Part shown: positions 30,743-58,750 of the stretch, piece after piece
How the letters are laid out: each line of letters begins with the position of its first letter
Position numbering within the stretch: position 1 is the first letter of the stretch
Origin: a virus
Taxonomy: Duplodnaviria; Caudoviricetes
Virus record (IMG/VR): IMGVR_UViG_3300000928_002271
Coordinates: 1 to 58,750 of that record
Length of the DNA: 58,750 nt
Strand: one strand, 5' to 3'
Notes under the pieces: model-generated
The model's database searches: none
Told to the model about the DNA's origin: nothing
Seen by the model: the letters and a program-made list of their open reading frames with translations, nothing else
Made by a program: the position numbers and the translations under genes

Positions 30743-32578
30743 TTATTTAAAATACATTTTATCATTTATAACTAAAATGTCTACATCTGATTGTTCAAAT
30801 AATTCCATAGCATCATAAGGTGTTTCAACAATTGGTTGACCTTTAATGTTTAATGATGTGTTCATAATAATAGGAACTCCTGTTTTACTATAAAAACGAG
30901 ACATTAAGTCATACAATCGAGGATTATCTTCTTGCTTAAGGGTTTGAACTCGAGATGAGTTATCAATGTGAGCTACCGAAGGGATTTCTTGGGGACGCTT
31001 ACAAGGTACTGTATGCAACATGAATGGAGATTCAAAGTCCATATCAAACCATTCTTCTTTATGCTCATTTAAAACAATAGGAGCAAATGGGCGATACCAC
31101 TCACGGAATTTAACTCTTGAATTAAGAATATCTTTCATTTTAGGATTACGAGCATCAGTTAAGAATGAACGATTTCCTAGAGCACGTGGACCAAATTCAC
31201 CACCACCTTGATACCAGCATACAATTTGAGATTTAGAAAGAGCACTTGCTACTTTATCTAAATCTAGATCGTGTGCTTGAAGTTTAGTTTGGGGTTGGTA
31301 ATTATAAGTAAAGCCTAAATATGCTAAATCTGAATTTGAATATTCTACACGAGGTTTTTCAAAAACATGGTGGTAAATATATAATGCAGAACCTGCTGAG
31401 ACACCATCATCACCACAAGCTGGGAACATATGCATACGTTCAAATCCAGTTTCAGTAAGGATTTTATAATTAGCATTACAATTTAAGAAAATACCACCTG
31501 CGGCACATAGATTATGACCATTGAATGGTTCGGATTCCTCAAATAATTGTTGTGAATACTCAACCAATGAACGTTCTGTAATATACTGAACATCAGCAGC
31601 ATGATTCATAACTTCTTGAGAATCAGATTCAGATTTATCATATACCTTTTGCCACTCTTTAGTATAATGATCTGAACCAGGTTCATTAGCTAAAATCTCA
31701 GGACGTTTACCCCCAATGTAAGGATATTTACCTGTGATTTGACTAAATAACCATTCTACATAAAAATGGTCTTCTTCAGGCATATTACGTTCCCAAATAG
31801 GACAAGTCCATTTTTTCCAATTATCTTGAGCTTTTTTACTAACTCTACCATATGAAGCTAGACCCATTAAAGTTCCTGCTTTTAAAGTTCCAGGACCCAA
31901 TCCAAGCCATTCTGTAGCAGTATCATAAAAATTCCCCATCATATATCCTGGGAATCTAAAGATTTGGAGTTTATTACCTTTACCTATAAAGTAAGTACTA
32001 CAATTAGCATGATCGTGCATAGACGCATCAGCTGTGAAAATAGCAGATTCTTCGAATGGTGAAGTATAGAAGGTTGAAGCAGCATGGGCTGTATGGTGAT
32101 TTACAAAATAACCCTTAATCAAACGATCATAACCTTCAATCTCAATATTTAATTCTAAATGACTTCTAAAGGTATGATTCCACGTTACAAAAGGATAGGT
32201 CATTCTATCAATTGTATAAGGCATTGTAAAACCTTTACCCTTAATAAGCTCGGGGCGGTCTGTTCCTTCAATATGATTTAGAATACGAGACGATTGATTA
32301 TAAGTCCCAAATGTATTAAATGGATAAAATAAATCCTCAGGAGAATATAGAGTAAGGAAGGGGGAAGTTCCTTTATTCCAATAACCCATTGTAATGTAAT
32401 CAATATCATCAAGAGTAATTCCTAGACATTCTAAGGTATTAATAAAAAATTCCTTAGTAAGATAAAAATCTTTCTTAACTTTTGAGTGTCGTTCTACTGA
32501 ACTAGCATAAATCAATTTTCCGTCTTTGATTACGGACAGCGAAGCATCATGCCCCGAGTGAATTCCAACTATAACCAT
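30743..32578 (-). CDS. Carbamoyltransferase (NodU/CmcH/TobZ family)
   Basis: GHDAS, VERHSK.K, HHTAHAAS, MGLASYG, AGGIFLNC.AN, GDDG, EFGPRALGNRS, KFREWYRPFAP, NTSLN. Confidence 0.93.
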   Translation of the reverse strand: MVIVGIHSGHDASLSVIKDGKLIYASSVERHSKVKKDFYLTKEFFINTLECLGITLDDIDYITMGYWNKGTSPFLTLYSPEDLFYPFNTFGTYNQSSRILNHIEGTDRPELIKGKGFTMPYTIDRMTYPFVTWNHTFRSHLELNIEIEGYDRLIKGYFVNHHTAHAASTFYTSPFEESAIFTADASMHDHANCSTYFIGKGNKLQIFRFPGYMMGNFYDTATEWLGLGPGTLKAGTLMGLASYGRVSKKAQDNWKKWTCPIWERNMPEEDHFYVEWLFSQITGKYPYIGGKRPEILANEPGSDHYTKEWQKVYDKSESDSQEVMNHAADVQYITERSLVEYSQQLFEESEPFNGHNLCAAGGIFLNCNANYKILTETGFERMHMFPACGDDGVSAGSALYIYHHVFEKPRVEYSNSDLAYLGFTYNYQPQTKLQAHDLDLDKVASALSKSQIVCWYQGGGEFGPRALGNRSFLTDARNPKMKDILNSRVKFREWYRPFAPIVLNEHKEEWFDMDFESPFMLHTVPCKRPQEIPSVAHIDNSSRVQTLKQEDNPRLYDLMSRFYSKTGVPIIMNTSLNIKGQPIVETPYDAMELFEQSDVDILVINDKMYFK

Positions 32579-44513: not shown

Positions 44514-45002
44514 TTAGAAGTTCAAGATACAGTAATCTGGTTGAACTGTCATTGTAAGGTTTATAGCAGTGTTTTCTGTATCCCAACCATATTCACCAAA
44601 GTTAGCATCAGTGATTAAAGCACCTTTAATGATCCATTCTGATACTACGTCACCAACAGGGCCTAATACGTTGAATGTTAAGTCTTTCTTATAGAAATCA
44701 CTATAACCATCACGACCAGTTACTGATTCGTGGTGTAAACGTACCCATTCCATAACGGCTTGGGCACCAGAAGGAGTAATAGGATCAAATAATGTGAACT
44801 GAACTGTATTCCAAGTTGTTTTTCCTTTCACAAAACGTTGAACGTTGATGTGGTTAAGAGGTACTGTGCCTTGAGTTAAGGTTACGGCACCTACACCTTT
44901 TACGATATAAGCTGGGAATCCGTCCATATACATGATGAACCTGTTTGCTTGTTTTGGTTCAAACGCTGTAAAGAAAATTTCGTTGGGATCTAATACTGCC
45001 AT
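44514..45002 (-). CDS. Tail tube protein (gp19-like)
   Basis: FEPKQANRF, GKTTWN, VMEWVR, YKKD, EWIIKGA; directly after the sheath gene. Confidence 0.88.
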   Translation of the reverse strand: MAVLDPNEIFFTAFEPKQANRFIMYMDGFPAYIVKGVGAVTLTQGTVPLNHINVQRFVKGKTTWNTVQFTLFDPITPSGAQAVMEWVRLHHESVTGRDGYSDFYKKDLTFNVLGPVGDVVSEWIIKGALITDANFGEYGWDTENTAINLTMTVQPDYCILNF

Positions 45003-45047: not shown

Positions 45048-46787
45048 TTACCCTGGGAAAGTAGCTCCTGTTGGTAATACATTAAAGTCTAGGATAATGA
45101 ATTCTGCTGTTTTAGTTGGTTGGAGATAAATAGCACCTACCATCTGATTTCTGTCGATTACGTCAGGTGTGTTATTTGAATCATCCATTACAACTTTAAA
45201 CGCATATAAACCTTGTCTTTGTTGTACAGACTCTAAATAAGGGTTTACTGCTGCTAAGAAGTTATTTCTTGTGGCGGCTGTATTTTGTTCAAATACCAAG
45301 TTTTGAGAAACTTGACCAATATATCCTTTAAGAGCAATTAATAATCTTCTAACATTTACTCTATCAAGCGCCGAAGCTTGTCTCTGTAATGTCTTTTGAC
45401 CATAAACTACAGTACCGGTTCCAGGGAATGAAGCGATTGGGTTAACGTTATTTTCGTATAAGGTATCTCTGTTAGATTGTGTTAACTTTCTTTCAGGGCG
45501 AATTACGTTGTCTAAACCTCCTCTGTTGATACCCGCTGGAGCAAACCATGGCTCGCTTACACTGTCGTTATATGCGTAAACTCCCCCGATCATTGTTGAC
45601 GCTGGTACCCAAACGTTTTGACCTGAATCAGGGTCAATTGTTTGTAACCAAGGCCAGTACATAGCGGCGTATGAAGTATTTCTTGAAGCTGCTTGAGTTG
45701 TTGTATTAACAATAGTTGCAGCGTAAGTAATAGGATCAAGTACGTAAATGCTATCACCTCTACCTTGAGTGTTATTAATTGCTGTAGTGGTTTGTGAAGC
45801 ATGAACACTATTAAATAAACCAGGAGTTAATAACACATTAAATGCGTAGTCATCTTGGTTAGCTAATAAGTTTAACATATCTGTATAATCACTACCTACA
45901 ACACCTTGTGTTACAGCGCCAGCACCTGTACCTGCTAATTCATAGTAATTACCACCAGCTGTGTAAGTTGAAATATTAGTACCAGTACCACCTGAGAAGG
46001 CACCACCGGCTGATCCTGAACCTACTGCTGGGATAAGATCCACATAAGCGGCTTTAGCATTACCTGCATTATCTAAGTAATTAGGAGTTAAGTTATTAAC
46101 TGTTTTTACTTTAATATATCTTGAAGAGTTAGGGTATGAACCTGATACTTCTAGGTAATTTTCAGTTGAGTTGTAGTTGTATGTAGTATCACCAATTACT
46201 CTAGAAACAAAGTTTGGTTGTGTTGGGTCTAATGATAAGTTATTCCAAGATTCTAAGATAACTGGGTTGTTTGTTGTGTCATCGCCTCTTCTAACTACTA
46301 ATGAAAATACACCAGATGCTGTGTTATTAGAAACAACTTGCCATCTAACGTTATCAATATTACCATTTTCTAAAGCACCACCTGTTAAGATAGTACCATT
46401 ATTATTCCAAACCGCACCTTTATCAATAGCTTCAAAAGTAACAGCCGTACTAGCGTCAATTGCTGGGATTTGGGCGTTTGAGTAACTCCAATCTGTAGCG
46501 GCTGAGCCTGAAACTACTCGAGTTACTAACATTGTGTTTCCACCGTTAGCGAAGTAGTTGTAAGCTGCGATAGAAGTAAAGTAAGAATAGACTAAGCTAC
46601 CACTTTCGAATGTGGTACCAAATCTATTTTGATAATCGCTGTATGATGTAACGAGTGTTGGTACTTCTACAGGACCTTTTACTGTAGGACCTACAAGAGC
46701 AGCACCTACTTGTACAGGTTGCTGCGTGATAAATGACTGGTCATTCTCTCTTGTTAATACACCAGGTGATACTAATGTTTCTGCCAT
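45048..46787 (-). CDS. Contractile tail sheath protein (gp18-like)
   Basis: SPGVLTREND, PWFAPAGINRG, VNPI, GQKTLQ, RVNVRRL, FEQN, PTKTAEFI. Confidence 0.96.
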   Translation of the reverse strand: MAETLVSPGVLTRENDQSFITQQPVQVGAALVGPTVKGPVEVPTLVTSYSDYQNRFGTTFESGSLVYSYFTSIAAYNYFANGGNTMLVTRVVSGSAATDWSYSNAQIPAIDASTAVTFEAIDKGAVWNNNGTILTGGALENGNIDNVRWQVVSNNTASGVFSLVVRRGDDTTNNPVILESWNNLSLDPTQPNFVSRVIGDTTYNYNSTENYLEVSGSYPNSSRYIKVKTVNNLTPNYLDNAGNAKAAYVDLIPAVGSGSAGGAFSGGTGTNISTYTAGGNYYELAGTGAGAVTQGVVGSDYTDMLNLLANQDDYAFNVLLTPGLFNSVHASQTTTAINNTQGRGDSIYVLDPITYAATIVNTTTQAASRNTSYAAMYWPWLQTIDPDSGQNVWVPASTMIGGVYAYNDSVSEPWFAPAGINRGGLDNVIRPERKLTQSNRDTLYENNVNPIASFPGTGTVVYGQKTLQRQASALDRVNVRRLLIALKGYIGQVSQNLVFEQNTAATRNNFLAAVNPYLESVQQRQGLYAFKVVMDDSNNTPDVIDRNQMVGAIYLQPTKTAEFIILDFNVLPTGATFPG

Positions 46788-47104: not shown

Positions 47105-49426
47105 TTATTTTTTACTATTTAAGATGGGTTTAATTTTTTGAAATACTTGCCCCGGGGTAATAGACTTTTGACAGATGTGTTGTTTATCTGTACCCTTCCA
47201 AATTGGGCACCAATCCCAATCACCAGCATCAAACATAAAGTTAGGATTAGTCCAACAAGGAATACAAGCTCCCTCGTTCATAATACGAGTTACTTTAGAA
47301 GTAAATTCGTGGTTTTTATCAGCAAACCCATTAATCATTACTGTGTGTTTACCTAGTCCCCAGTTAAACCAAGATAAACCAGAGCCTAAACCAATAAATA
47401 AATCAGCGTGTAATAAGTAATTCGCTACTGTTGAGAAGGGTTGATTCCATGAATTTATGGTTCCTTGGATAAACAACTCGTTTTTAGTTAAACTAACTAC
47501 CTGATAGCCAGATTGGTTAAGTAATTTTACTAAAGTTTTCCAATAATTGATATTCCATTCTTTACAACCAGCGGTAGCATTAGGACCGATAACAACATAT
47601 TTACCTTTAATCAAACGATTTCCTTTAGAAAAATTTAAACCGTGGTTTACTTCTTTAAATTCCAAACCTAGGATATCAGTAGCAGTTTGTTGTAATGGGA
47701 TTACGTTTACTTGGTTGGGGTATTTATCAAAACAGCTCCATTTATTATCATCACCCTTAAACCAACCTACACGGTATACTGCTGCGCACGAGGTTGATTG
47801 CCCAGGTTCCATAAATTCAATATCTTTATAGGCTTCTAAACCTTTAAACCAATCATTATGGAATGTAGACATAATTACTTTACAATTATGTTTTTTAGCA
47901 AACTCTACAGCGTATGGAGTCCACGCTACAGTATCACCTAATGATTTAGATTCTAAAGTAATCAATACTCGTTGTCCCTCTAAATTAAGTTTATCTACAA
48001 CTTCACCATTTACTTTAATAATCCAGTCTGTATAGTATTTTCTGGAACAAGTAGTCCACATATTATTACTGATAGTTGTGCTATAGATTACTTTATCTGT
48101 TTTAGCATCAATAAATTCAATAAAATATGTTTCTACATTGTCACCTTTAATAAAAACTTTAGGTCCCTCTAGGTATGAAATCTCAATACGATTTGGTTTA
48201 GAAGTAGGTTTATAGGTTTCCATAAAGTTTTGGACAGTTTCCATACCAATTTCAGCTACTCTATCCCAATTAAAATCACGATGGATCAATTTAGCTTCTT
48301 CAATAGCACGTTTTTTATGGTCGGTATAATTTTCGTATGCATCGCGCATTACACGAGCTAAATCCTCAAAATCAGGCTCATAGTAATTACCAGGAATATG
48401 ATTGTCTTTAAGGTTAATACCAAAATTAAAGTAGTTGTTACCGTTGGTTGGTTTTTCACCTAATACTTTTACAGGTAAACCTTTACCCTCAGCAAATTCC
48501 ATTTGAGCACAGCATGCTGAATAGATAGATGGGGTGCCACAAGCCATAGCTTCAATTAATGGTAAATTCCATCCCTCGGCTCTAGCACAAGATAGAAACA
48601 CATGACCATTTTTCATGTATGTAATATAATCTTCTCTAGAAGGGAAGTTTTTAATTTTGATACGTGAATCAATTAAACCATAGTTTTTTAATCTATCTTC
48701 TGTAGTAGTAAAGCCATCTAAATCTTTACCCCATGGATTATCAATTGAAACAATTAAATCAACTGGTTCATTAGATTTAAATTCTTTAAGGAAGGTTTCA
48801 ATAATTTCCTTAGTAGATTTTCTATAATCCCAACGTCCAAATAAAACAAATTTAAAACGTCCGTCTACATAATCTAGTACTGTTTGGGGATCTTCAGGAT
48901 AAAACGTATTTACATCTACACCTTCGGGTACTACTTTTACTTGATCAGGATCTGCGCCCTGTTTAATAGTACACTCACGTTGCCACTTACTAGGAACCCA
49001 AATTTGATCGTATTCTAGTAATTGGTTAAAAAATTCAGTAGGTTGTTCAGTTGACTCCCAAACATTATACCCAATTTTAGGACCAATATACCCATCATAA
49101 AAGAAATGGTGGTTGGTTTCTTCTAAAACAATGTTAACATCGTGTTTAAAATCCTCACCATGATTCTGGTAGATTCTATGGTCAGTTCTTGTTCTATCAG
49201 AATTCCAGAGGGTTTGCTCGTGGAGCAACTTTTTATCAATATCTAAGATATAGGGGTTACCTTCGTGTGGTTCATCACTAGGCCAATTCCATTCTTTACC
49301 AATAGTAAAATTCCTAACCTTAACATCAGTATGTTTAGATAGGTGACGGAAAAAATCTCTAGTGTGATTAGCATAACCAGTGGTTCCTACATAAGAACCG
49401 TGAGCATAAATTTTGGGTTTTTTCAT
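47105..49426 (-). CDS. Fusion: GT4 glycosyltransferase + Aah/TibC-like protein O-heptosyltransferase
   Basis: N-half: RAEGWNLPLIEAMACGTP. C-half (from ~aa 410): SKSLGDTVAW, FIGLGSGLSW, CIPCW...FD..DWDWCP.WKGT..QHICQKSITP. Confidence 0.85.
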   Translation of the reverse strand: MKKPKIYAHGSYVGTTGYANHTRDFFRHLSKHTDVKVRNFTIGKEWNWPSDEPHEGNPYILDIDKKLLHEQTLWNSDRTRTDHRIYQNHGEDFKHDVNIVLEETNHHFFYDGYIGPKIGYNVWESTEQPTEFFNQLLEYDQIWVPSKWQRECTIKQGADPDQVKVVPEGVDVNTFYPEDPQTVLDYVDGRFKFVLFGRWDYRKSTKEIIETFLKEFKSNEPVDLIVSIDNPWGKDLDGFTTTEDRLKNYGLIDSRIKIKNFPSREDYITYMKNGHVFLSCARAEGWNLPLIEAMACGTPSIYSACCAQMEFAEGKGLPVKVLGEKPTNGNNYFNFGINLKDNHIPGNYYEPDFEDLARVMRDAYENYTDHKKRAIEEAKLIHRDFNWDRVAEIGMETVQNFMETYKPTSKPNRIEISYLEGPKVFIKGDNVETYFIEFIDAKTDKVIYSTTISNNMWTTCSRKYYTDWIIKVNGEVVDKLNLEGQRVLITLESKSLGDTVAWTPYAVEFAKKHNCKVIMSTFHNDWFKGLEAYKDIEFMEPGQSTSCAAVYRVGWFKGDDNKWSCFDKYPNQVNVIPLQQTATDILGLEFKEVNHGLNFSKGNRLIKGKYVVIGPNATAGCKEWNINYWKTLVKLLNQSGYQVVSLTKNELFIQGTINSWNQPFSTVANYLLHADLFIGLGSGLSWFNWGLGKHTVMINGFADKNHEFTSKVTRIMNEGACIPCWTNPNFMFDAGDWDWCPIWKGTDKQHICQKSITPGQVFQKIKPILNSKK

Positions 49427-49427
49427 A

Positions 49428-50177
49428 TTATCTCATTATTTCACAACCACCATCTATACCACGGGTTCCATTAAATCCGTGCCAAATGGGTTTGAGGGGT
49501 ACTTGATTATTTCTTAGATGTTGGGCTATTAATGTTTCGTTTATAAACATATCAGTATAAAACTGATAGTATTCAGGGTCCACAAATATAATACGGAGCA
49601 TGTGGGTAAACACGTTACAGTAAATTTTCATTAAATCATATCCACCAACTGCGAATGTATCATTTAGCTGATCGGCCATTTTCCAATGTGGTGGGTATTC
49701 AAAATAATGAATGTAGTTTGGGTCATATTTAGTAACGTCTTCTAATAAGGGGCAATTATTAGCTACTCGGTGGGTAAATAATAAATCGTATCGAGTTTTA
49801 ATAACTAAATCATACTTAATACCTGTTGCCTCCATTAAATCCCAAGAGCGTTTTAATGATAACCACATACTCATTTGGGAATTAAGGCGTTGATTGTTTG
49901 GACCTTTTAAATCAGCAGCATCAAATTTAATAGCAGGTTCAAATAAATAATCTTTAGGTTGATACCAATCAACTAAATTCTGATATAAATTATTCTCTAC
50001 ATTATAAACCTTCTGTAATTTACCTTCATTAAAGAAATCATATTTGTGGAATACTTTATCTTCCCAAGCGTGTAAATACACATCGACATCATATCTATCT
50101 AAAAACCATTTTTTTAGGTCTTTAAATCCATTTCTATACCTACGTGGTTGACCACTAACTAATATTGCTATTTTCAT
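49428..50177 (-). CDS. Putative glycosyltransferase-like protein (SGQPR family), paralog 1
   Basis: MKIAILVSGQPR, DVYLHAW, YDLVIKTRYDL, NDTFA. Confidence 0.55.
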   Translation of the reverse strand: MKIAILVSGQPRRYRNGFKDLKKWFLDRYDVDVYLHAWEDKVFHKYDFFNEGKLQKVYNVENNLYQNLVDWYQPKDYLFEPAIKFDAADLKGPNNQRLNSQMSMWLSLKRSWDLMEATGIKYDLVIKTRYDLLFTHRVANNCPLLEDVTKYDPNYIHYFEYPPHWKMADQLNDTFAVGGYDLMKIYCNVFTHMLRIIFVDPEYYQFYTDMFINETLIAQHLRNNQVPLKPIWHGFNGTRGIDGGCEIMR

Positions 50178-50938
50178 CGTAATATGTTAGCTGTAAAATA
50201 TTCTGTTAGACTTTTTACGTAATTTATTTCTACTTCATTAGAAACTAAGTGGTATTTTAATACTGTTTCTGGGTGGATTGGGTCAGGGTTTTCAGATATG
50301 ACTGTATCTAACCACGCTTTATACGCATCATTCATGTAAATATAGGATATCGCATACGTGAAATAATCAGCATAAATACCCGCAATTTCAGGCGAACTAA
50401 CGGCAAATAAATCATCAACCTCGGAGTGTCTTGTTGTGTGGCCTTCAGGTGTTAATGGATATTCAAATACATTAAGTTTATTAGGGTCTAATAAAGATAA
50501 ATCTTTTAGAAATAGACATTCGGGTGAAATATAATCAGTAAATTCTAGATCAAATCTAGTTCTAATAATTAAATCATATTCAATTCCAGAGTTTCTAACT
50601 AAATTATAACAAGCATGGATTGAATAAGAAGCACTTAATAAACTATTTAATTTATAATTTAAGGGCGTTCCTTTAATATTAGTTGTATCAAATGGAATAG
50701 GTTTTTGAAAAAAATAATCCTTAGGTTTAAATAGATCTAATATTTTAGAATAGTCATCGTCTTCAAATTCATATGTTCTAGCCTGAGCGAATTTATGACC
50801 TGCTTCCATAGCAGAGTCATCTTTCCAAGTATGAATGTAAATATCACAATCATACTTAGAAAGAAACCATTTTTTTAATTCGGCAAACCCTTGTTTGTAA
50901 TTACGAGGTTGACCACTAATACAAACTGCTATTTTCAT
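50174..50938 (-). CDS. Putative glycosyltransferase-like protein (SGQPR family), paralog 2
   Basis: MKIAVCISGQPR, DIYIHTW, YDLIIRTRFDL, DDLFA. Confidence 0.55.
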   Translation of the reverse strand: MKIAVCISGQPRNYKQGFAELKKWFLSKYDCDIYIHTWKDDSAMEAGHKFAQARTYEFEDDDYSKILDLFKPKDYFFQKPIPFDTTNIKGTPLNYKLNSLLSASYSIHACYNLVRNSGIEYDLIIRTRFDLEFTDYISPECLFLKDLSLLDPNKLNVFEYPLTPEGHTTRHSEVDDLFAVSSPEIAGIYADYFTYAISYIYMNDAYKAWLDTVISENPDPIHPETVLKYHLVSNEVEINYVKSLTEYFTANILR

Positions 50939-51552
50939 TATCTATAGTGACCTCCTCCTAACCATAATACAAATGATTTACGAGTACCTTTAGTAACTGG
51001 GGTGACTCTATGCATCATAAATGATGGGAAAATTACTACATTACCTTTACCTCGTGGTGCTGTATATGGGTATTGACCACCTGTCCAAATTTGTAAATCA
51101 CCACCTTCGTATTCATCGGGGCTTGAGAGTTGGACTGTAATAGAGATTTTACGGAATTTCATAAAACCATCTGCTCCAATATCCATGTGCCAATCATAGT
51201 GACCTTTGTTTGATCCATAATATTCTGTGTATTGAATATTTTCGGGCATGTTGTGGATATCAAATTGAAACATTTCAGAGTTAGCTGTCATAGCCATTTC
51301 TCCTAATTTGTCATAAATCCATTTAGTTTCGGGAGAAAACGGCATCCATTTAATTTGTGAATTACGCGCTTCTAAACCCTCGCCTTGATCTTGACCACCA
51401 GCCTCTGTAATACCAGGTTGGAAAGGAACATCAAGTACTTGTTGTTCAATTAATTCTAATTCTTCAGGTGTGAAACCTTCACCAAACCAATAATAGTTGG
51501 TTTGATTGACATACTTGTCAAATGGTAATGGAAATGAATAGGTTGAATCCAT
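50938..51552 (-). CDS. 2OG-Fe(II) dioxygenase (P4Hc/PKHD-type)
   Basis: WHMD...RKISITVQLS..EYEGGDL...FPSFMMHRVTPVTKGTRKS (HxD...H...R). Confidence 0.92.
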   Translation of the reverse strand: MDSTYSFPLPFDKYVNQTNYYWFGEGFTPEELELIEQQVLDVPFQPGITEAGGQDQGEGLEARNSQIKWMPFSPETKWIYDKLGEMAMTANSEMFQFDIHNMPENIQYTEYYGSNKGHYDWHMDIGADGFMKFRKISITVQLSSPDEYEGGDLQIWTGGQYPYTAPRGKGNVVIFPSFMMHRVTPVTKGTRKSFVLWLGGGHYR

Positions 51553-51555
51553 AAT

Positions 51556-53931
51556 TTATTTTTTGGTAAATGAAACTAATATGTAACGTGTGCCTTCTTC
51601 TACTGGTCTACCCCCGTGGAGGTGAGTAATAGTACCTGGGTGAGACATAACGTTACCAATTTTACGTGGTTGAACTGTTGTTTTATATTTGGGTAAATAG
51701 GTACCTCCACCTTTAAAATCATTATTTAATCTTACGTTCAATGTAATAACAGAATCGTCGTGATGCAAGTCTAAACTACCCTGATTTACAGTATCATATT
51801 TAGCGATAAAATTTTCACTGCCTAGAGTTTTCCAGGTATCACCTGTAAGTTCCCAATACCAAATCCAAATTGGATATACAAATTCCTCTAATACTCTTTG
51901 GTAAATATGTTGTACACCTAAACTTTCCATTGTTTGGTCAGTTGTAGGATAAAATTCATGGCGATCAGTTACCCAAGTATTATTTTCAGCTAATTCGATA
52001 ATTTCATTACAGAATTTTTCAGTAAATAATGGGAATTCAATTACGTTAGGAGCAATTTCATCTACCATCAAACGTGATTGACCTTTGCGAATAAAAGGAT
52101 TAATGTATTTATCACACCATTCTTCCCAATTTTGAATTTGCATAATTTCAGGCAAATCACTTAATACAGTAGGTTCAGGTCTAACATAAAATGTAGTACC
52201 TGGGCTGGCTTTTTGTTCGTAATAATTAACAATGGGAGCGGCTGCTTTTAATCGAGTTTTACCACTATATTCACCTAAAATTTCCTGACGATGAGTCATT
52301 CCATAGGTAATAGGTAAAAATTCATCAATAGCAAACATAGCTCCTTTAAATTGTTCAAGATATTCCTCTACTAAAATTTGAATACCTTTTTTAGATAAAA
52401 TATAAGCATGAGCATTGTATGAATAATCAGGTTCAACCCAACCTAAAACACCTTCGATAGGTTGTTCTAAATCTGCTTTGAGAGCACTACGACCTAAATA
52501 AATTAGATCATAACCCATATCTAATAGTTGTTGAACCTGGTCCCAGGGTACTTGGATTTCTTCGTGGAAATCATCCTCAAAAATAATAGCTACTTCGTGG
52601 TCTTTAGCATATGAATCTACCCAAGCATCTACGTGAGAGAGTGAACAACCTAATTCACCATCCATTACATCACGAGACCACCATTCATTAGGAGTATTAA
52701 ATTTCCAACGTGGATGTTTTTTAACACCAAATTTTTCTAAAATTTCGGGGAATTCAGGTGATTTAGCATTAAATCCAGGTTTAATCCAGTATGGGGTATT
52801 AGGTTCTGGGAGATTGACGTTTGTGCATTTTTCCTGTAATTCAGGCGTTTCATTTGTGCTTAGAACGTAGAAATAATCAATTTTCATATTTAACTTTGTT
52901 ATTAATGGTAACCATTTGTCTTTTGTAACAATTCTCCAATCATTATAATGTATATAGGATTTAACTAAATTCCAATTTATATTTTCATAAATATTACGAG
53001 TATTAAACCCATGTAATGTTTCTTTTAACCCTCCCCATTCCCACGTTATTGGTTGAACCTTATGCCCTAACATTTCTAGGGCAGTGATACAGAATGTTTC
53101 TTCATAATCACTAGGGTAATACCAATATGAACTACTTGCCATTAGTGGGTATAGTTCTTGTTGGGGTAATGTACCAACAAATTCTACACCATCCAAACTA
53201 TCTACCCATTCTTTAAAATAAAGATTATAATATTCTAACCCATATGCTGGAGTAGCTATTTTTAAAGTAGCGTCAGGAGTATTTTTTACAATAGAAGGCC
53301 ATTCCTCCAATAAACGTTGTAACCCACGTTCAGCGTGGGAGGTGTAGATGTATTGATTATCGTTTTTTATATTATGTTTTTGGTTACCTGGGAATAGTTT
53401 TCCTTGTTTTATTTTGGGGGTAGGCCAAACATCTATAAAATTGGATTTTTCAACACCATTTCCAATAACAATAGTTTTACCTAACGCTTCGGGGAATTGT
53501 TCTATAAATTTATTTTGATGCCAATAGGTTAAACATACTATATGAGATAATTTAGGATGTTTTAATAATTCTCTATGGTTTTTTAATTCAGTACCTCTCC
53601 ACCAAGTAAAATAATCAGTGTTATGAACCCAAAATATAGAGTTTTTGTAATTAAAATCCTCAAATTCCTTTAAATAATGAATATATGATGTAGCTATAAT
53701 AGTGTCTACTGAATCAGTCTCATTTTTGAATGTTTGAGTGGTTCTGTATTTGACTTTATCGTAATCACCTTCGATTACATCGCCTACTACCCATACCTCG
53801 TTTCCGGGATACGATACCAAATATTTGGAGAGATACAGAACACATTGTTCTGTACCTCCCAAACCAGTTGAATTTATAAATGTTGGGTTCCAAGGTTTAT
53901 TTTGATATCCCGTGTATAAAACTATTTTCAT
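51556..53931 (-). CDS. Tri-domain enzyme: GT4-like + GT25 (COLGALT-like) + PLOD-like lysyl hydroxylase
   Basis: aa 1-345: GLGGTE, ETFCITALE. aa 349-580: GELGCSLSH, FEDD, DLIYLGR, DYSYNAHAY, IDEFLP. aa 600-791: FPLFTEKFC, YPTTD, NFIAKY, HHDDSVITLNV, GGGT, HPGTITHLHGG, GTRYILVSF. Confidence 0.88.
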   Translation of the reverse strand: MKIVLYTGYQNKPWNPTFINSTGLGGTEQCVLYLSKYLVSYPGNEVWVVGDVIEGDYDKVKYRTTQTFKNETDSVDTIIATSYIHYLKEFEDFNYKNSIFWVHNTDYFTWWRGTELKNHRELLKHPKLSHIVCLTYWHQNKFIEQFPEALGKTIVIGNGVEKSNFIDVWPTPKIKQGKLFPGNQKHNIKNDNQYIYTSHAERGLQRLLEEWPSIVKNTPDATLKIATPAYGLEYYNLYFKEWVDSLDGVEFVGTLPQQELYPLMASSSYWYYPSDYEETFCITALEMLGHKVQPITWEWGGLKETLHGFNTRNIYENINWNLVKSYIHYNDWRIVTKDKWLPLITKLNMKIDYFYVLSTNETPELQEKCTNVNLPEPNTPYWIKPGFNAKSPEFPEILEKFGVKKHPRWKFNTPNEWWSRDVMDGELGCSLSHVDAWVDSYAKDHEVAIIFEDDFHEEIQVPWDQVQQLLDMGYDLIYLGRSALKADLEQPIEGVLGWVEPDYSYNAHAYILSKKGIQILVEEYLEQFKGAMFAIDEFLPITYGMTHRQEILGEYSGKTRLKAAAPIVNYYEQKASPGTTFYVRPEPTVLSDLPEIMQIQNWEEWCDKYINPFIRKGQSRLMVDEIAPNVIEFPLFTEKFCNEIIELAENNTWVTDRHEFYPTTDQTMESLGVQHIYQRVLEEFVYPIWIWYWELTGDTWKTLGSENFIAKYDTVNQGSLDLHHDDSVITLNVRLNNDFKGGGTYLPKYKTTVQPRKIGNVMSHPGTITHLHGGRPVEEGTRYILVSFTKK

Positions 53932-53957: not shown

Positions 53958-56900
53958 TTACATTCTTACTGCATCAATTAAATATCCTGAATCGAATGAT
54001 AATAACCAAGTGGGTTGTCTAGTTCCTAGGTTTAAATCATAGTCTCCAGATATACCAATATCTACGTTTTGACCTCCAGGTGCACCTTTTGGACCGATTG
54101 GACCTTGTGGACCGATTGGACCGATTGGACCTCTTGCTCCAATACCTGCAGCTGGGCCGATTGGACCAATAGCACCAATTGGGCCTTGTGGTCCTGGTAA
54201 ACCGCTACTACGGAACCAATATGCTGTATTAGTATAGCTAATTGTTCCAGGGGGGGGATTTTGGATACAATAGTAGATATTAGGGTATGGTAATTCAGCA
54301 ACTTTAACACCATCTCCTACGTAAAATGATTCGTTAATATCCCAAATACTCAAATTTGGGGAATTATATGCTAAACCACCAGCACCTTTAGGACCTATTG
54401 GACCGATTGCTCCGATTCCGGCATTATTACCTCTTGGACCACGAGGACCGATAGCACCAATTCCGGCATTTGGACCTGCAGCACCTTGTGGACCTCTTGG
54501 ACCAATGTTACCAATACCAGCATTGTCACCTTGAGGACCGATTGGACCAATGGGGCCTTTAGCTCCGATTCCAGGAGTAACACCTACAGGACCTCTTGGA
54601 CCAATGGGGCCTTTAGCTCCGATTCCAGGAGTAACACCTACAGGACCTCTTGGACCAATTGGACCGATAGCTCCAATGCCAGCATCTGTACCTCTTGGAC
54701 CAATTGCACCTCTTGGACCAATAGCACCTTGTGCACCGATTGGACCAATAGAGCCAATAGGACCTTGAGGTCCAATAGCTCCAATTCCAGGAGTTACACC
54801 AACCGGACCTCTTGGACCAATAGCACCAATAGCTCCAATTCCAGGAGTTACACCTACTGGACCACGAGGACCAATAGCACCAATTCCGGCATTAGCACCT
54901 TGAGGACCTCTTGGACCAATGGGGCCTTTAGCTCCGATTCCAGGAGTAACACCTACAGGACCTCTTGGACCAATTGGACCTCTTGCTCCAATACCAGCGG
55001 AATCACCTACTGGACCACGAGGACCAATAGCACCAATTCCAGGAGTGACACCTTGAGGACCTCTTGGACCAATAGCACCAATAGCTCCAATTCCAGGAGT
55101 TACACCAACCGGACCTCTTGGACCAATTGGACCTCTTGCTCCAATTCCAGGAGTTACACCAACCGGACCTCTTGGACCAATTGGACCTCTTGCTCCAATA
55201 CCAGCGTTATCACCTAATGGACCACGAGGACCAATAGCACCAATTCCGGCATTAGCACCTTGAGGACCTCTTGGACCAATAGTACCAATAGCTCCAATTC
55301 CAGGAGTTACACCAACCGGACCTCTTGGACCAATTGGACCTCTTGCTCCAATACCAGCGTTATCACCTAATGGACCACGAGCACCAATTGGACCTCTAGC
55401 TCCAATACCTGGGGTGACACCTACAGGACCACGGGGACCAATAGCACCAATTCCGGCATCTGTACCTCTTGGACCAATTGGACCAATAGCTCCAATTCCA
55501 GGAGTGACACCAACCGGACCTCTTGGACCAATATTACCAATGTTACCAATTGGACCTCTATTTCCTATATTACCAATGTTACCAATTGGACCTCTTGGAC
55601 CAATAGCTCCAATTCCAGGAGTTACACCAACCGGACCGCGAGCACCAATTGGACCAATAGCTCCAATACCCGGGGTGACACCTACAGGACCTCTTGGGCC
55701 AATGTTACCAATGTTACCAATTGGACCTCTTGGACCAATTGCACCAATAACACCTTGAACTCCTTGTGGGCCGATAGCTCCAATACCTGGAGTAACACCT
55801 ACGGGACCACGGGGACCAATATTACCAATGTTTCCGATTGGGCCTCTATTTCCAATATTACCAATATTACCTTGAACACCTTGTGGACCAATAGCTCCAA
55901 TTCCGGGAGTTACACCTACAGGACCTCTTGGGCCGATGTTACCGATAGCTCCAATTGCACCTGAGGGGCCGATTGGACCACGAGGACCAATAGCTCCAAT
56001 TCCAGGAGTTACACCAACCGGACCGCGAGCACCAATTGGACCAATAGCTCCAATTGCACCTGAGGGGCCGATTGGACCACGAGGACCGATAGCACCAATT
56101 CCAGGAGTGACACCTACAGGACCACGAGGACCGATAGCACCAATTGGACCTTGAACACCTTGAGGTCCGATTGGACCCTGTTGTGTTGGACCTAATGGAC
56201 CGATTGGACCAATAGCTCCAATAGCTCCTTGATCACCTGTAACTGTACCACGTGGACCAATATCACCTCCTGGACCTAGAGGGCCGATGGGACCTTGTTG
56301 GGTAGGACCAATTGGACCAATAGCTCCAATAGCTCCCTGGTCACCAGTAGTAGTACCACGTGGTCCTATATTACCTATATTTCCTTGTGGACCGATTGGG
56401 CCCTGTTGAGTAGGACCAATTGGGCCAATAGCTCCAATTGCACCTTGGTCTCCTACAGCTGTACCGCGAGGACCAATGTTACCTATATTTCCTTGTGGAC
56501 CGATTGGGCCCTGTTGAGTAGGACCAATTGGGCCAATAGCTCCAATTGCACCTTGGTCTCCAACTTCTGTACCACGTGGTCCAATATTACCAATGTTACC
56601 AATGTTTCCAATTGGACCCTGTTGAGTAGGACCAATTGGGCCAATTGCACCAATAGGGCCTTGGTCTCCTACAGCTGTACCGCGAGGACCAATGTTACCT
56701 ATATTTCCTTGTGGGCCGATTGGACCCTGTTGAGTAGGACCAATTGGGCCAATAGCTCCAATTGCACCTTGGTCTCCTACAGCTGTACCGCGAGGACCAA
56801 TGGGACCTTGAACACCTTGAGGTCCGATAGGACCTTGTTGTGTTGGACCAATTGGACCGATTGGGCCGATTGCACCAACAGGACCTTGGTCTCCTGTAGC

Positions 56901-57758
56901 TGTACCACGTGGGCCAATATTACCTTGTGGGCCTAATGGACCTAATGGACCTTGTTGTGTTGGGCCTAGTGGACCGATTGGACCAATAGCACCAATAGCT
57001 CCTTGATCACCAACTTCTGTACCACGTGGTCCAATTGCTCCTATTACACCTGGATTGCCAATTAGGCCGATTGGGCCTATTGCACCAATAGGACCTTGAT
57101 CTCCGGTAGCTGTGCCTCGTGGACCAATTGCTCCGATAGCACCAATAGGACCAATTGGACCTTGTTGTGTTGGACCTAATGGACCAATTGGACCGATAGC
57201 ACCGACTGGGCCTTGGTCTCCTACAGCTGTACCGCGGGGACCAATTGCTCCAATAGGACCTTGTAGGCCAATTGGACCAATTGCTCCAATTGCACCATTT
57301 GGACCTTGATCTCCTACAGCTGTACCGCGTGGACCAATTGTACCAATATTACCTTGTGGACCTAATGTACCAATTGGACCTATAGCACCGACTGGGCCTT
57401 GGTCTCCTACAGCTGTACCGCGGGGACCAATTGCTCCAATAGGACCTTGTGGGCCTGTTAAATTAATAGCTCCCCCACCATTACCTACAATAACTAATTG
57501 TTTAGTATTAGTGTCATAGTAAATATCACCAGCAAGAGCATCACTAGGAATAGCGCTTCTAACTGGGAGATTTAATAACGCTCCATCTGGAATAGAAACT
57601 CTACTGCGGGTAGGATCTAAAGATAATAGAGTCGTACCTGAGGTATCAGTTATAGATACCCCAGTTGACGATTCATATGTGAGTTTGATGTTACCAACTC
57701 CATCTTCAATAAAATCTAAACTCCCTGAGTTGGGAATTATCTGGACATTTTTAGCCAT
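53958..57758 (-). CDS. Collagen-like tail fibre protein 1 (1266 aa)
   Basis: About 1030 aa of interrupted Gly-X-Y repeats ([12 protein letters not shown]) between a ~100-aa N-terminal domain and a C-terminal region with a W...GD.V...Y.C module. Confidence 0.88.
54080..57455. repeat. Coding tandem repeats (9-bp-based ggaccaatt/ggacctctt units) of collagen fibre 1
   Basis: Hierarchical degenerate repeats with synonymous variation. Confidence 0.9.
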
Positions 57759-57781
57759 ATCTTAATATTACCCTACTATTA

Positions 57782-58750
57782 TTAGTTTACTGTGGTTAAA
57801 ACACCGTTATTAAAGAATAATACAGGTCCTTCACCTACGTTAGTTGTTATACCAGCAGGAGCTGCATTTCCTTTTGGACCGATAGGACCGATTGAACCTC
57901 TAGGACCAATAGGACCTTGTGGACCGATTGGAGATGAACCACCTGGGCCTATATTACCTTGTGGGCCGATAGGACCTTGTTGTCCATTGTTACCAACAGC
58001 ACCTACAGGACCGATTGGACCGATAGGACCGATTGGTGAACTACCTCCTGGACCTTGTGGTCCGATAGGACCGATTGGAGATGAACCACCAGGACCGATT
58101 GAACCTTTAGGACCGATAGGACCGATTGGAGATGTACCTGCTGTTCCTTTTGGACCAATTGAGCCGATAGGACCTTGGGGAGATATAGGACCGATTGGAG
58201 ATGAACCTGCTGTTCCTTTTGGACCAATTGAGCCGATAGGACCAATTGGAGATGAACCTGCTGTTCCTTTAGGACCAATATTACCCTGAGGACCGATTGG
58301 AGATGAACCACCAGGACCAATTGGACCTTGTGGTCCGATAGGACCAATTGGGGAATTACCTTGTGGACCAATAGGACCAATTGCACCTTGGGGACCAATT
58401 GGTGAGCTACCTGCTGTTCCTTTTGGACCGATAGGACCAATAGGACCGATTGGTGAACTACCTCCTGGACCTTGTGGTCCGATAGGACCGATTGGAGATG
58501 AACCTGCTGTTCCTTTAGGACCAATATTACCAATAGGACCGATTGGAGATGAACCTGCTGTTCCTTTTGGACCGATAGGACCTTGTGGACCGATTGGAGA
58601 TGAACCTGTTGTTCCTTTTGGACCAATAGGACCGATTGGAGAGGAACCTTGAGTACCTTTTGGACCGATAGGACCAATAGGACCGATTGGAGAGGAACCT
58701 TGAGTACCTTTTGGACCGATAGAACCAATAGGACCGATTGGAGATGAACC
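57782..58750 (-). CDS. Collagen-like fibre protein 2, 5'-truncated by the window
   Basis: Not in the ORF track. Minus frame from 58750 reads [23 protein letters not shown]...GPKGNAAPAGITTNVGEGPVLFFNNGVLTTVN, stop TAA at 57782..57784. Confidence 0.88.
   Translation of the reverse strand, partial: GSSPIGPIGSIGPKGTQGSSPIGPIGPIGPKGTQGSSPIGPIGPKGTTGSSPIGPQGPIGPKGTAGSSPIGPIGNIGPKGTAGSSPIGPIGPQGPGGSSPIGPIGPIGPKGTAGSSPIGPQGAIGPIGPQGNSPIGPIGPQGPIGPGGSSPIGPQGNIGPKGTAGSSPIGPIGSIGPKGTAGSSPIGPISPQGPIGSIGPKGTAGTSPIGPIGPKGSIGPGGSSPIGPIGPQGPGGSSPIGPIGPIGPVGAVGNNGQQGPIGPQGNIGPGGSSPIGPQGPIGPRGSIGPIGPKGNAAPAGITTNVGEGPVLFFNNGVLTTVN

Follow-up and report, generated by a model that had tools for sequence, protein, structure and literature searches.

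Why would a tailed phage encode, in a single polypeptide, a lysyl hydroxylase (LH) domain like those that modify animal collagen together with two glycosyltransferase (GT) domains, and on what would such an enzyme act? The question is raised by an open reading frame (ORF) at 51556–53931 of the virus record IMGVR_UViG_3300000928_002271 (IMG/VR; Duplodnaviria, Caudoviricetes), which we analysed over positions 1 to 58,750 (a stretch of 58,750 nucleotides, hereafter the window). The original prediction placed this ORF correctly, leaving out its strand (minus), and took the product to be an assembly line that hydroxylates lysine, adds a first sugar and then a second. That interpretation is borne out in part: the domain identities and the conservation of the catalytic residues hold up, and the enzymatic steps, the donor sugars and the linkage are what we infer. 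We put at roughly two in three the probability that the enzyme hydroxylates and then glycosylates the collagen-like tail fibres encoded just upstream, a predicted function that the comparative evidence supports well. The ORF, its domains and the two upstream genes are as follows.

51556..53931, minus strand: uninterrupted ORF of 791 aa (ATG start, stop codon included), GT-B + GT25 + PLOD-type lysyl hydroxylase
52897..53931, minus strand: aa 1–345, GT-B domain (Glycos_transf_1 / GT4-like), from Pfam, AlphaFold2/Foldseek and the EX7E pair E278...E286
52177..52887, minus strand: aa 349–585, GT25 domain (COLGALT-like GT-A), beginning at the internal Met of the seam
51559..52149, minus strand: aa 595–791, PLOD-type Fe(II)/2-oxoglutarate (2OG) lysyl hydroxylase domain, matching LH3 and L230
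53958..57758, minus strand: collagen-like protein of 1266 aa, likely substrate and probable tail fibre (Pfam Collagen E 3.7e-65)
57782..58750, minus strand: second collagen-like gene, its 5′ end cut by the window edge (85 triplets, Lys 11/11 in Y)

The three-domain chain is widespread. In a database clustered at 90%, 112 of the 120 clusters listed span 100% of the query at 43–100% identity, on contigs of up to 178 kb, which rules out an assembly or frameshift artefact, and the only names among those listed are ‘glycosyltransferase involved in cell wall biosynthesis’, ‘GR25 family...’ and ‘hypothetical protein [bacterium]’. Full-length orthologs of 61–83% identity are present in 11 IMG/VR loci. 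No full-length relative was found in 50,697 phage records, a set from which records near the window may be excluded, and the best match there spans 39% of the query. One uncultured Caudovirales protein in BFVD (rank 37) carries the automatic name ‘procollagen-lysine 5-dioxygenase’, and automatic annotation has thus noticed the LH domain at least once. The sequence MKIDYFYV (aa 349–356), which had been suspected of being a fusion seam, proves to be one: at least six representative proteins (P0025, P0027, P0033, P0040, P0065, P0112) begin exactly at query residue 349 and lone GT-B relatives end near residue 344, so the seam is real.

An exhaustive search of representative proteins returned 4901 at E <= 1e-3 and 185 at E <= 1e-30, and we typed 153 proteins (the best 150, the query and two others) with our own domain hidden Markov models. 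These comprise 25 proteins of the GT-B-GT25-LH form, 30 of the GT25-LH form (eight of them long proteins of the mimivirus L230 type), two GT-B-LH fusions, 21 with LH as the sole typed domain, 51 with GT-B alone, 14 with GT-B-GT25 and no LH, which occur in giant multi-GT proteins, and 10 others; some of the short forms may be gene fragments. A 723-aa protein close to the query in both the LH and GT25 trees (P0272) has DUF1501 (E 1.6e-31) in place of GT-B before GT25-LH, and may reflect a different third activity or a chimeric contig.

The LH domain aligns over aa 594–789 with residues 505–713 of human LH3/PLOD3 (phmmer against the PDB, E 1.4e-23, 86 bits), and the PDB sequence search also matches mimivirus L230 at E 8.9e-21. 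The best PDB family outside the PLOD enzymes is prolyl 4-hydroxylase (P4H) at only E 0.038; the match is therefore PLOD-specific and not a generic likeness among 2OG oxygenases, and a generic P4H-like oxygenase is ruled out by the same two values. The PLOD motif series reported earlier is present throughout and aligns with LH3/PLOD3: FPLFTEKFC (633–641), PTTD (662–665), ENFIAKY (706–712), LHHDDS (722–727), GGGTY (741–745), SHPGTITHLHGGRP (763–776) and GTRYILVSF (780–788). Within it H723, D725 and H772 (the Fe(II) triad) and R782 (the 2OG arginine), set in a double-stranded beta-helix, align to the HHD...H...GTRY motifs of LH3, and each is present in 39/39 of the full-length orthologs used for conservation, which are 28–85% identical to the query. 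An AlphaFold2 model built from these orthologs (mean pLDDT 89.6, pTM 0.61) superposes in this domain on the L230 structure 6ax6 with a TM score of 0.85, a root-mean-square deviation (rmsd) of 2.1 A and 30% identity in Foldseek. The N-terminal GT-A domain of PLOD proteins (PF25342) was not found in the query at E <= 0.01; P0061, P0062 and P0075 carry it.

For the GT25 domain COLGALT1 is the sole significant PDB family (E 5e-14, 55 bits), and PF01755 scores 32.1 bits against a cut-off of 24, with the match confined to profile positions 59–96. All of the COLGALT-type motifs named in the original prediction are there and align with COLGALT1: GELGCSLSH (425–433), FEDDF (451–455), DLIYLGR (475–481), DYSYNAHAY (502–510) and IDEFLP (535–540). 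The modelled domain matches COLGALT1 9u7h over 241 columns (rmsd 4.2, 22% identity). The sequence match is limited to the C-terminal catalytic domain of COLGALT1 (chain residues 370–507), and the non-catalytic N-terminal GT2-like domain of the human enzyme has no counterpart in the query. Residues G425, G428, C429, H433, E452, D454, H508 and D536 are invariant in the 39 orthologs, position 453 is D or E in 36/39, position 537 is E in 35 and D in four, and Y505 is kept in 35/39.

These residues can be placed on COLGALT1 in the numbering of PMC12987934, which has a +29 offset from chain 9u7h. According to the accessible part of that 2026 cryo-EM study, D436/D437 are ligands of the UDP ribose and Mn2+, D522 is the catalytic base and E523 anchors the hydroxylysine (Hyl) amine (PMC12987934). 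Their equivalents in the query are D453/D454, D536 and E537, and Y494 corresponds to Y505.

We compared this domain with stand-alone bacterial GT25 proteins, a sample of 12 drawn from 81 genomes in a single bacterial class and one further genome. These are of the lipopolysaccharide/lipooligosaccharide (LPS/LOS) type, and share with the phage domain PF01755 and the G-E-x-G-C...H and E-D-D motifs. A D-E pair and a [YF]SY motif are common to LH-linked and L230-type GT25 domains, whereas 10 of the 12 stand-alone proteins lack them. In the GT25 tree (81 rows) a branch marked 98* separates the LH-linked and L230-type domains from seven of the 12, and the query is outside the L230-type clade; among the other five, the D-E and YSYN motifs are found in L041 and L046, and L041, L046 and L047 fall within the LH-linked group. 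The tree split and the two motifs rule out a typical LPS GT25. The trees are quick IQ-TREE runs, unrooted and with no named animal sequences, from which the direction of gene transfer is not readable; a protein search confined to the LH region returned close relatives and no named animal PLOD. The LH tree (76 rows) groups the eight L230-type domains in a clade of their own (99*), which excludes the query, and the proteins with a PLOD GT plus LH in a second. At least five changes of the three-domain label across starred branches are required in this tree, and there has therefore been repeated gain or loss of domains, or some rows are fragments. The grouping with generic oxygenases and LPS GT25 enzymes that would have counted against the original prediction is not seen.

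The N-terminal domain, previously called GT4, exceeds the Pfam cut-offs for Glycos_transf_1 (29.2 bits against 26.4) and Glyco_trans_1_4 (32.1 bits against 27), and its AlphaFold2 model has a GT-B fold like that of retaining GT4-type enzymes, with Foldseek matches to PimA, MshA, glycogen synthase and the alpha-1,2-glucosyltransferase tll1591 at E 1e-11 to 1e-12. A PDB sequence search with this domain alone gives chance matches only (E >= 0.22), and the GT4 label, which comes from the Pfam family and the structural neighbours, is best treated as provisional. We take the family to be retaining. R202 and the EX7E pair E278 and E286 are each present in 39/39 orthologs. Conservation of the metal, donor and base residues thus extends to each of the three domains, which are likely active as far as such conservation indicates.

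What, then, would the enzyme modify? The fusion gene starts 26 nt downstream of the 1266-aa collagen-like gene and heads a cassette of modification genes described below. The PHROG tail-fibre and ‘collagen like minor tail’ families match the upstream genes through their G-X-Y repeats, a likeness shared with the collagen-like tail-fibre proteins of other phages. The 1266-aa protein has 320 G-X-Y triplets, with five lysines in Y (GAKG three times, GPKG twice) and none in X. In animals a Y-position lysine followed by glycine is the site used by LH and COLGALT1, as described in the accessible text of PMC12987934.

The association extends well beyond the window. Of 11 related loci, 10 show collagen-like genes directly upstream, and at the remaining one the sequence available on that side is just 251 nt long. 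An LH-alignment scan of IMG/VR found 281 stretches that encode a relative, and we examined 79 of these 281 loci, which fall into 48 groups at 95% LH identity. Counting groups with at least 3 kb of upstream sequence, a same-strand upstream collagen-like ORF is present in 12/13 three-domain, 6/17 GT25-LH and 3/4 LH-only groups; in none of the 79 loci is there a collagen-like ORF downstream or on the other strand. Lysine in the collagen-like ORFs of the surveyed loci (9169 triplets) occurs 1399 times in Y versus 30 times in X, the Y-position residues making up 80% of all their lysines, and in some lineages about 30% of triplets are G-X-K (e.g. 186/603 in L116). Nine distant three-domain lineages (L116, L118–L121, L124, L127, L128 and L130; LH 44–47% identical) lie behind giant collagen-like ORFs of 1182–1907 aa with 108–186 G-X-K triplets and at most one X-position lysine per protein.

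Two unrelated cultured phages, CRP-6 and S-CAM9, repeat the association of a GT25-LH protein with a collagen-like fibre. In the Roseobacter podophage CRP-6 (MK613348.1; L056, 2952–6564), gp58 (589 aa, ‘hypothetical protein’) matches GT25 at E 9e-19 and LH at E 4e-30, and lies two genes after gp60, which is annotated as a ‘putative tail fiber protein’ and whose 99 triplets include 26 lysines in Y and none in X. In the T4-like Synechococcus phage S-CAM9 (NC_031922.1; L057, 1–6483), gp218 (613 aa, ‘hypothetical’; GT25 E 4e-33, LH E 2e-29) is encoded downstream of a tail fibre. The 1038 aa of this fibre that were examined contain 59 triplets, with 22 lysines in Y, and between the two genes are another two for 2OG oxygenases. 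The full-text search listing for the paper describing CRP-6 does not return the word ‘collagen’. The cyanophages S-PRM1 and S-8S5x have similar LH matches.

We propose that modification would proceed in steps. The PLOD-type domain, with Fe(II), 2-oxoglutarate and O2, would hydroxylate the Y-position lysine of G-X-K-G sequences in the fibre proteins that the phage itself encodes. The GT25 domain, an inverting GT-A related to COLGALT1, would then transfer a hexose from a UDP-sugar to the new 5-hydroxyl, in a pocket that retains the equivalents of the COLGALT1 catalytic base and of the glutamate anchoring the Hyl amine. The GT-B (GT4-like) domain would add a further sugar, most economically by extending the Hyl-linked hexose. 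Further modifications are probably made by the other products of the cassette, namely a 2OG oxygenase, two DUF7796 proteins and a protein with GT-B and GT9 domains.

Several observations count against this proposal. In the acceptor cleft of COLGALT1 W495 corresponds to N506 in 35/39 orthologs and K470 to S482 or N, and both the YW motif and the lysine are kept in L230-type proteins; the W495A substitution abolishes the human activity, according to the accessible part of PMC12987934. The 1266-aa collagen-like protein is itself poor in lysine, with five in Y as compared to 52 arginines. No collagen-like ORF is present in the flanks of 11 of the 17 two-domain GT25-LH viral groups with at least 3 kb upstream, in 8.2 kb at one three-domain group (L129), or within 8 kb at any of 27 bacterial genome loci with an LH relative; the neighbours checked at two of these (L022, L023) are housekeeping genes. 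The relative arrangement of the domains is not fixed by the AlphaFold2 model because its pTM is only 0.61. Finally, GT25 and GT9 are classically LPS families.

The bacterial loci (L013–L039) include orphan LH genes (Thiothrix fructosivorans, Leucothrix, an Aquificaceae metagenome-assembled genome (MAG)), GT-B-LH fusions (Aliishimia, Granulosicoccaceae, Chromatiales) and GT25-LH forms. On a 9755-base Flavobacteriaceae MAG contig (L014) there is a GT25-LH gene (463 aa) and, after it, a free-standing GT-B gene of the same family (383 aa), a split arrangement whose order differs from that of the fusion.

The alternative that fares best, which we regard as unlikely and nevertheless worth weighing, is that LH and GT25 make monosaccharide-Hyl on the fibres as L230 does, with the GT-B domain using some other acceptor, such as fibre serine or threonine, or a distinct glycan assembled together with the GT-B+GT9 and DUF7796 proteins, and no Hyl-linked disaccharide is formed. 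GT4-LH fusions that have no GT25 do exist (P0005 and P0023, and in bacteria L022, L029, L030 and L031), the same GT-B domain is found in multi-glycosyltransferase proteins of 1000–2300 aa without LH, and the cassette has at least three further putative sugar-handling genes. In the animal pathway, though, the second sugar is added by a retaining enzyme. GT-B, GT25 and LH, moreover, share one chain in 25 of the 153 typed proteins and in 112 of the 120 listed clusters, a pattern that favours their acting one after another on a single substrate, even if L230 is shown to add only one glucose (Glc) in the accessible text of PMC9614988.

Much less probable is that the target is a glycoconjugate of host or phage, such as LPS or capsule, or else some other protein, and that the nearby fibre genes merely reflect the placement of the fusion gene in a structural module. 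GT25, GT4 and GT9 are typical LPS or cell-wall families, the ortholog names refer to ‘cell wall biosynthesis’, and this reading would accommodate both the bacterial LH relatives without collagen neighbours and the 11/17 GT25-LH viral groups without a flanking collagen-like ORF. It does not sit well with the same-strand collagen-like genes upstream in 12/13 three-domain groups and the return of the association in the two unrelated cultured phages, with the near confinement of lysine to Y (1399 vs 30), with the conservation of the COLGALT1 residues that hold the Hyl amine and activate the hydroxyl, or with the grouping of the LH domain with PLOD enzymes and not with small-molecule oxygenases.

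Least probable of all, one or more of the domains could have lost catalysis and act purely as a scaffold or in binding, as do the non-catalytic N-terminal part of COLGALT1 and the LH3 accessory domain. The animal enzymes of the pathway contain dead GT-like domains (accessible part of PMC12987934), and the cleft residues W495 and K470 are replaced. Against this, the residues for metal, donor and base functions do not vary in any of the three domains among the 39 orthologs, even at 28% identity.

The proposal of a fibre-modifying enzyme has a precedent. Among characterised enzymes the phage protein is closest to mimivirus L230, which hydroxylates lysine of viral collagen and adds Glc, and whose N-terminal domain resembles GLT25D1, as set out in the accessible text of PMC9614988. 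Both are virus-encoded single chains joining a COLGALT-like GT25 to a PLOD-type LH, and both the L230-type viruses and the phage encode collagen-like proteins with lysine in Y. A single chain with GT25, a second GT and LH is thus already known from the L230 type and is not new in itself. The L230-type proteins that we scanned (P0095, P0134, P0147) have the order GT25, PLOD GT-A, accessory region and LH, in about 870–940 aa, and P0147 matches the COLGALT1 catalytic domain at E 3e-47 and whole LH3 at E 1e-106. In contrast, the phage order is GT-B, GT25, LH, the GT-B replaces the non-homologous PLOD GT-A, there is no accessory domain, and the carrier is a bacteriophage. The phage fusion is a new architectural variant of the L230/PLOD-COLGALT kind, widespread in marine phages.

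Human LH3/PLOD3 and COLGALT1 (GLT25D1) associate non-covalently in the accessible account of PMC11897130, and in this ‘KOGG’ complex would carry out the same three chemical steps that we propose for the phage. The Fe triad, the 2OG arginine, the D-D motif for UDP and Mn, and the equivalents of D522 and E523 are conserved in the phage protein. In the phage, however, the functions are covalently fused and the second GT is a GT-B rather than the GT-A of LH3; similarity is low (86 and 55 bits), the COLGALT1 N-terminal domain, W495 and K470 are absent, there is no endoplasmic reticulum context, and the proposed substrate is a phage fibre.

Full-text literature searches, with subscription journals and supplements outside their scope, found neither a phage lysyl hydroxylase or phage LH-GT fusion nor hydroxylation or glycosylation of lysine in phage collagen-like fibres. 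Bacterial dioxygenases of other families, beta-hydroxylases with sulfotransferases, have been predicted to modify collagen-like proteins (Iyer et al. 2010, accessible part of PMC2938197), and the accessible text of a Baltic virome study calls the role of viral P4H-like genes ‘cryptic’ (PMC9301287).

A broader view can be put forward only tentatively, and we think it somewhat more likely to be wrong than right. Glycosylated Hyl on collagen triple helices, seen as a trait of animals and a few giant viruses, would be widespread on marine phage tail fibres through modular enzymes in which LH, GT25 and GT-B are shuffled. In the three-domain form a Hyl-disaccharide would arise by inverting and then retaining transfer, in analogy to animal Glc-Gal-Hyl and with a non-homologous second transferase, and animal COLGALT and PLOD could descend from a phage and bacterial pool. 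If the fibre-modifying function proposed above holds, collagen-type lysine hydroxylation and O-glycosylation would extend to viruses of bacteria and be common there. Genes labelled ‘hypothetical’ or ‘cell wall glycosyltransferase’ would gain a concrete predicted function, and glycans coating the collagen-like tail fibres may play a part in recognising the host or in keeping the fibres stable. Mimivirus enzymes are already used to produce modified recombinant collagen in bacteria, and compact, cytosolic, single-chain enzymes may serve the same end. The question is directly testable in CRP-6 and S-CAM9, which are cultured and have the GT25-LH core beside lysine-rich collagen-like fibres.

The window itself is a fragment of a marine myovirus, estimated at 36% complete in its IMG/VR record, with all of its long ORFs on one strand. 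It encodes a tail sheath, tail tube, baseplate hub, family-B DNA polymerase, DnaB helicase, ribonucleotide reductase, GroEL and a carbamoyltransferase. Among cultured phages the closest are Flavobacterium phage vB_FspM_immuto, whose tail sheath is 52% identical, and Microcystis phage Mel-JY01; the fusion was found in neither at E <= 1e-5. Near-identical DNA is present in marine and riverine metagenome runs, with word shares of 0.66–1.00. Downstream of the fusion gene are the rest of the cassette and part of the tail module.

50938..51552, minus strand: 2OG-Fe(II) oxygenase of 204 aa, PKHD/PiuC- and P4H-like (2OG-FeII_Oxy_3 E 9.5e-15; phrog_61)
50174..50938, minus strand: DUF7796 paralog A, 254 aa (phrog_13607)
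49428..50177, minus strand: DUF7796 paralog B, 249 aa (phrog_13607; 39% identical to paralog A)
47105..49426, minus strand: protein of 773 aa with GT-B (Glycos_transf_1) and GT9 (heptosyltransferase-like) domains, from Pfam
45048..46787, minus strand: tail sheath (phrog_23 E 1.3e-77), placing the cassette in the tail module
44514–45002: tail tube

The oxygenase gene lies 3 nt downstream of the fusion gene, and the four cassette genes follow with gaps of at most 3 nt or overlaps, the tail sheath coming after them. This gene order is kept in related contigs, and the GT-B+GT9 gene is in the same place in L006 and L008. No similarity was detected between the GT-B domain of the fusion and the 773-aa GT-B protein (E 1.9). 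The 204-aa oxygenase matches PKHD-type hydroxylases in the PDB at E 2e-8 and prolyl 4-hydroxylase at E 0.006. Proline occurs 159 times in X and three times in Y in the 1266-aa collagen-like protein, which therefore offers almost no substrate for a canonical collagen P4H acting on Y-position proline; X-position proline, arginine and asparagine are possibilities for the target of this oxygenase. DUF7796 is carried by 11–30% of members in matching Atlas clusters, and its model (pLDDT 63.2) gives GT-A-like Foldseek matches (GT6, glycogenin, the GT domain of LH3) with TM scores of about 0.35–0.45 and E >= 4.7e-4, hinting weakly at a likeness to GT-A nucleotide-sugar enzymes, a low-confidence lead.

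Metatranscriptome contigs at least 99% alike to the cassette are present in three libraries from three studies (X13 13/13, X16 6/6, X19 3/4), some of them inside the fusion gene (e.g. 52728–52943 and 51558–51779), and library X20 has only a relative of 90–99%. These contigs are a weak hint of cassette transcription, as DNA contamination of the libraries is possible. The window has no excess over shuffled sequence of promoter-like sites (36 vs 39.0 +/- 6.2) or terminator-like sites (10 vs 10.3 +/- 3.1).

The GC content is 0.48–0.49 over window positions 54001–58000, which hold the collagen-like genes, as compared to 0.31–0.37 elsewhere, and we attribute this jump to the base composition of G-X-Y coding rather than to foreign DNA. 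The Gly/Pro-rich repeats of these genes also create long shadow ORFs on the opposite strand. Elsewhere, the window encodes a GroEL-type chaperonin at 1363–2985 (phrog_5725, E 5e-159) and a Nol-like carbamoyltransferase at 30743–32578 (phrog_1601, E 9e-120).

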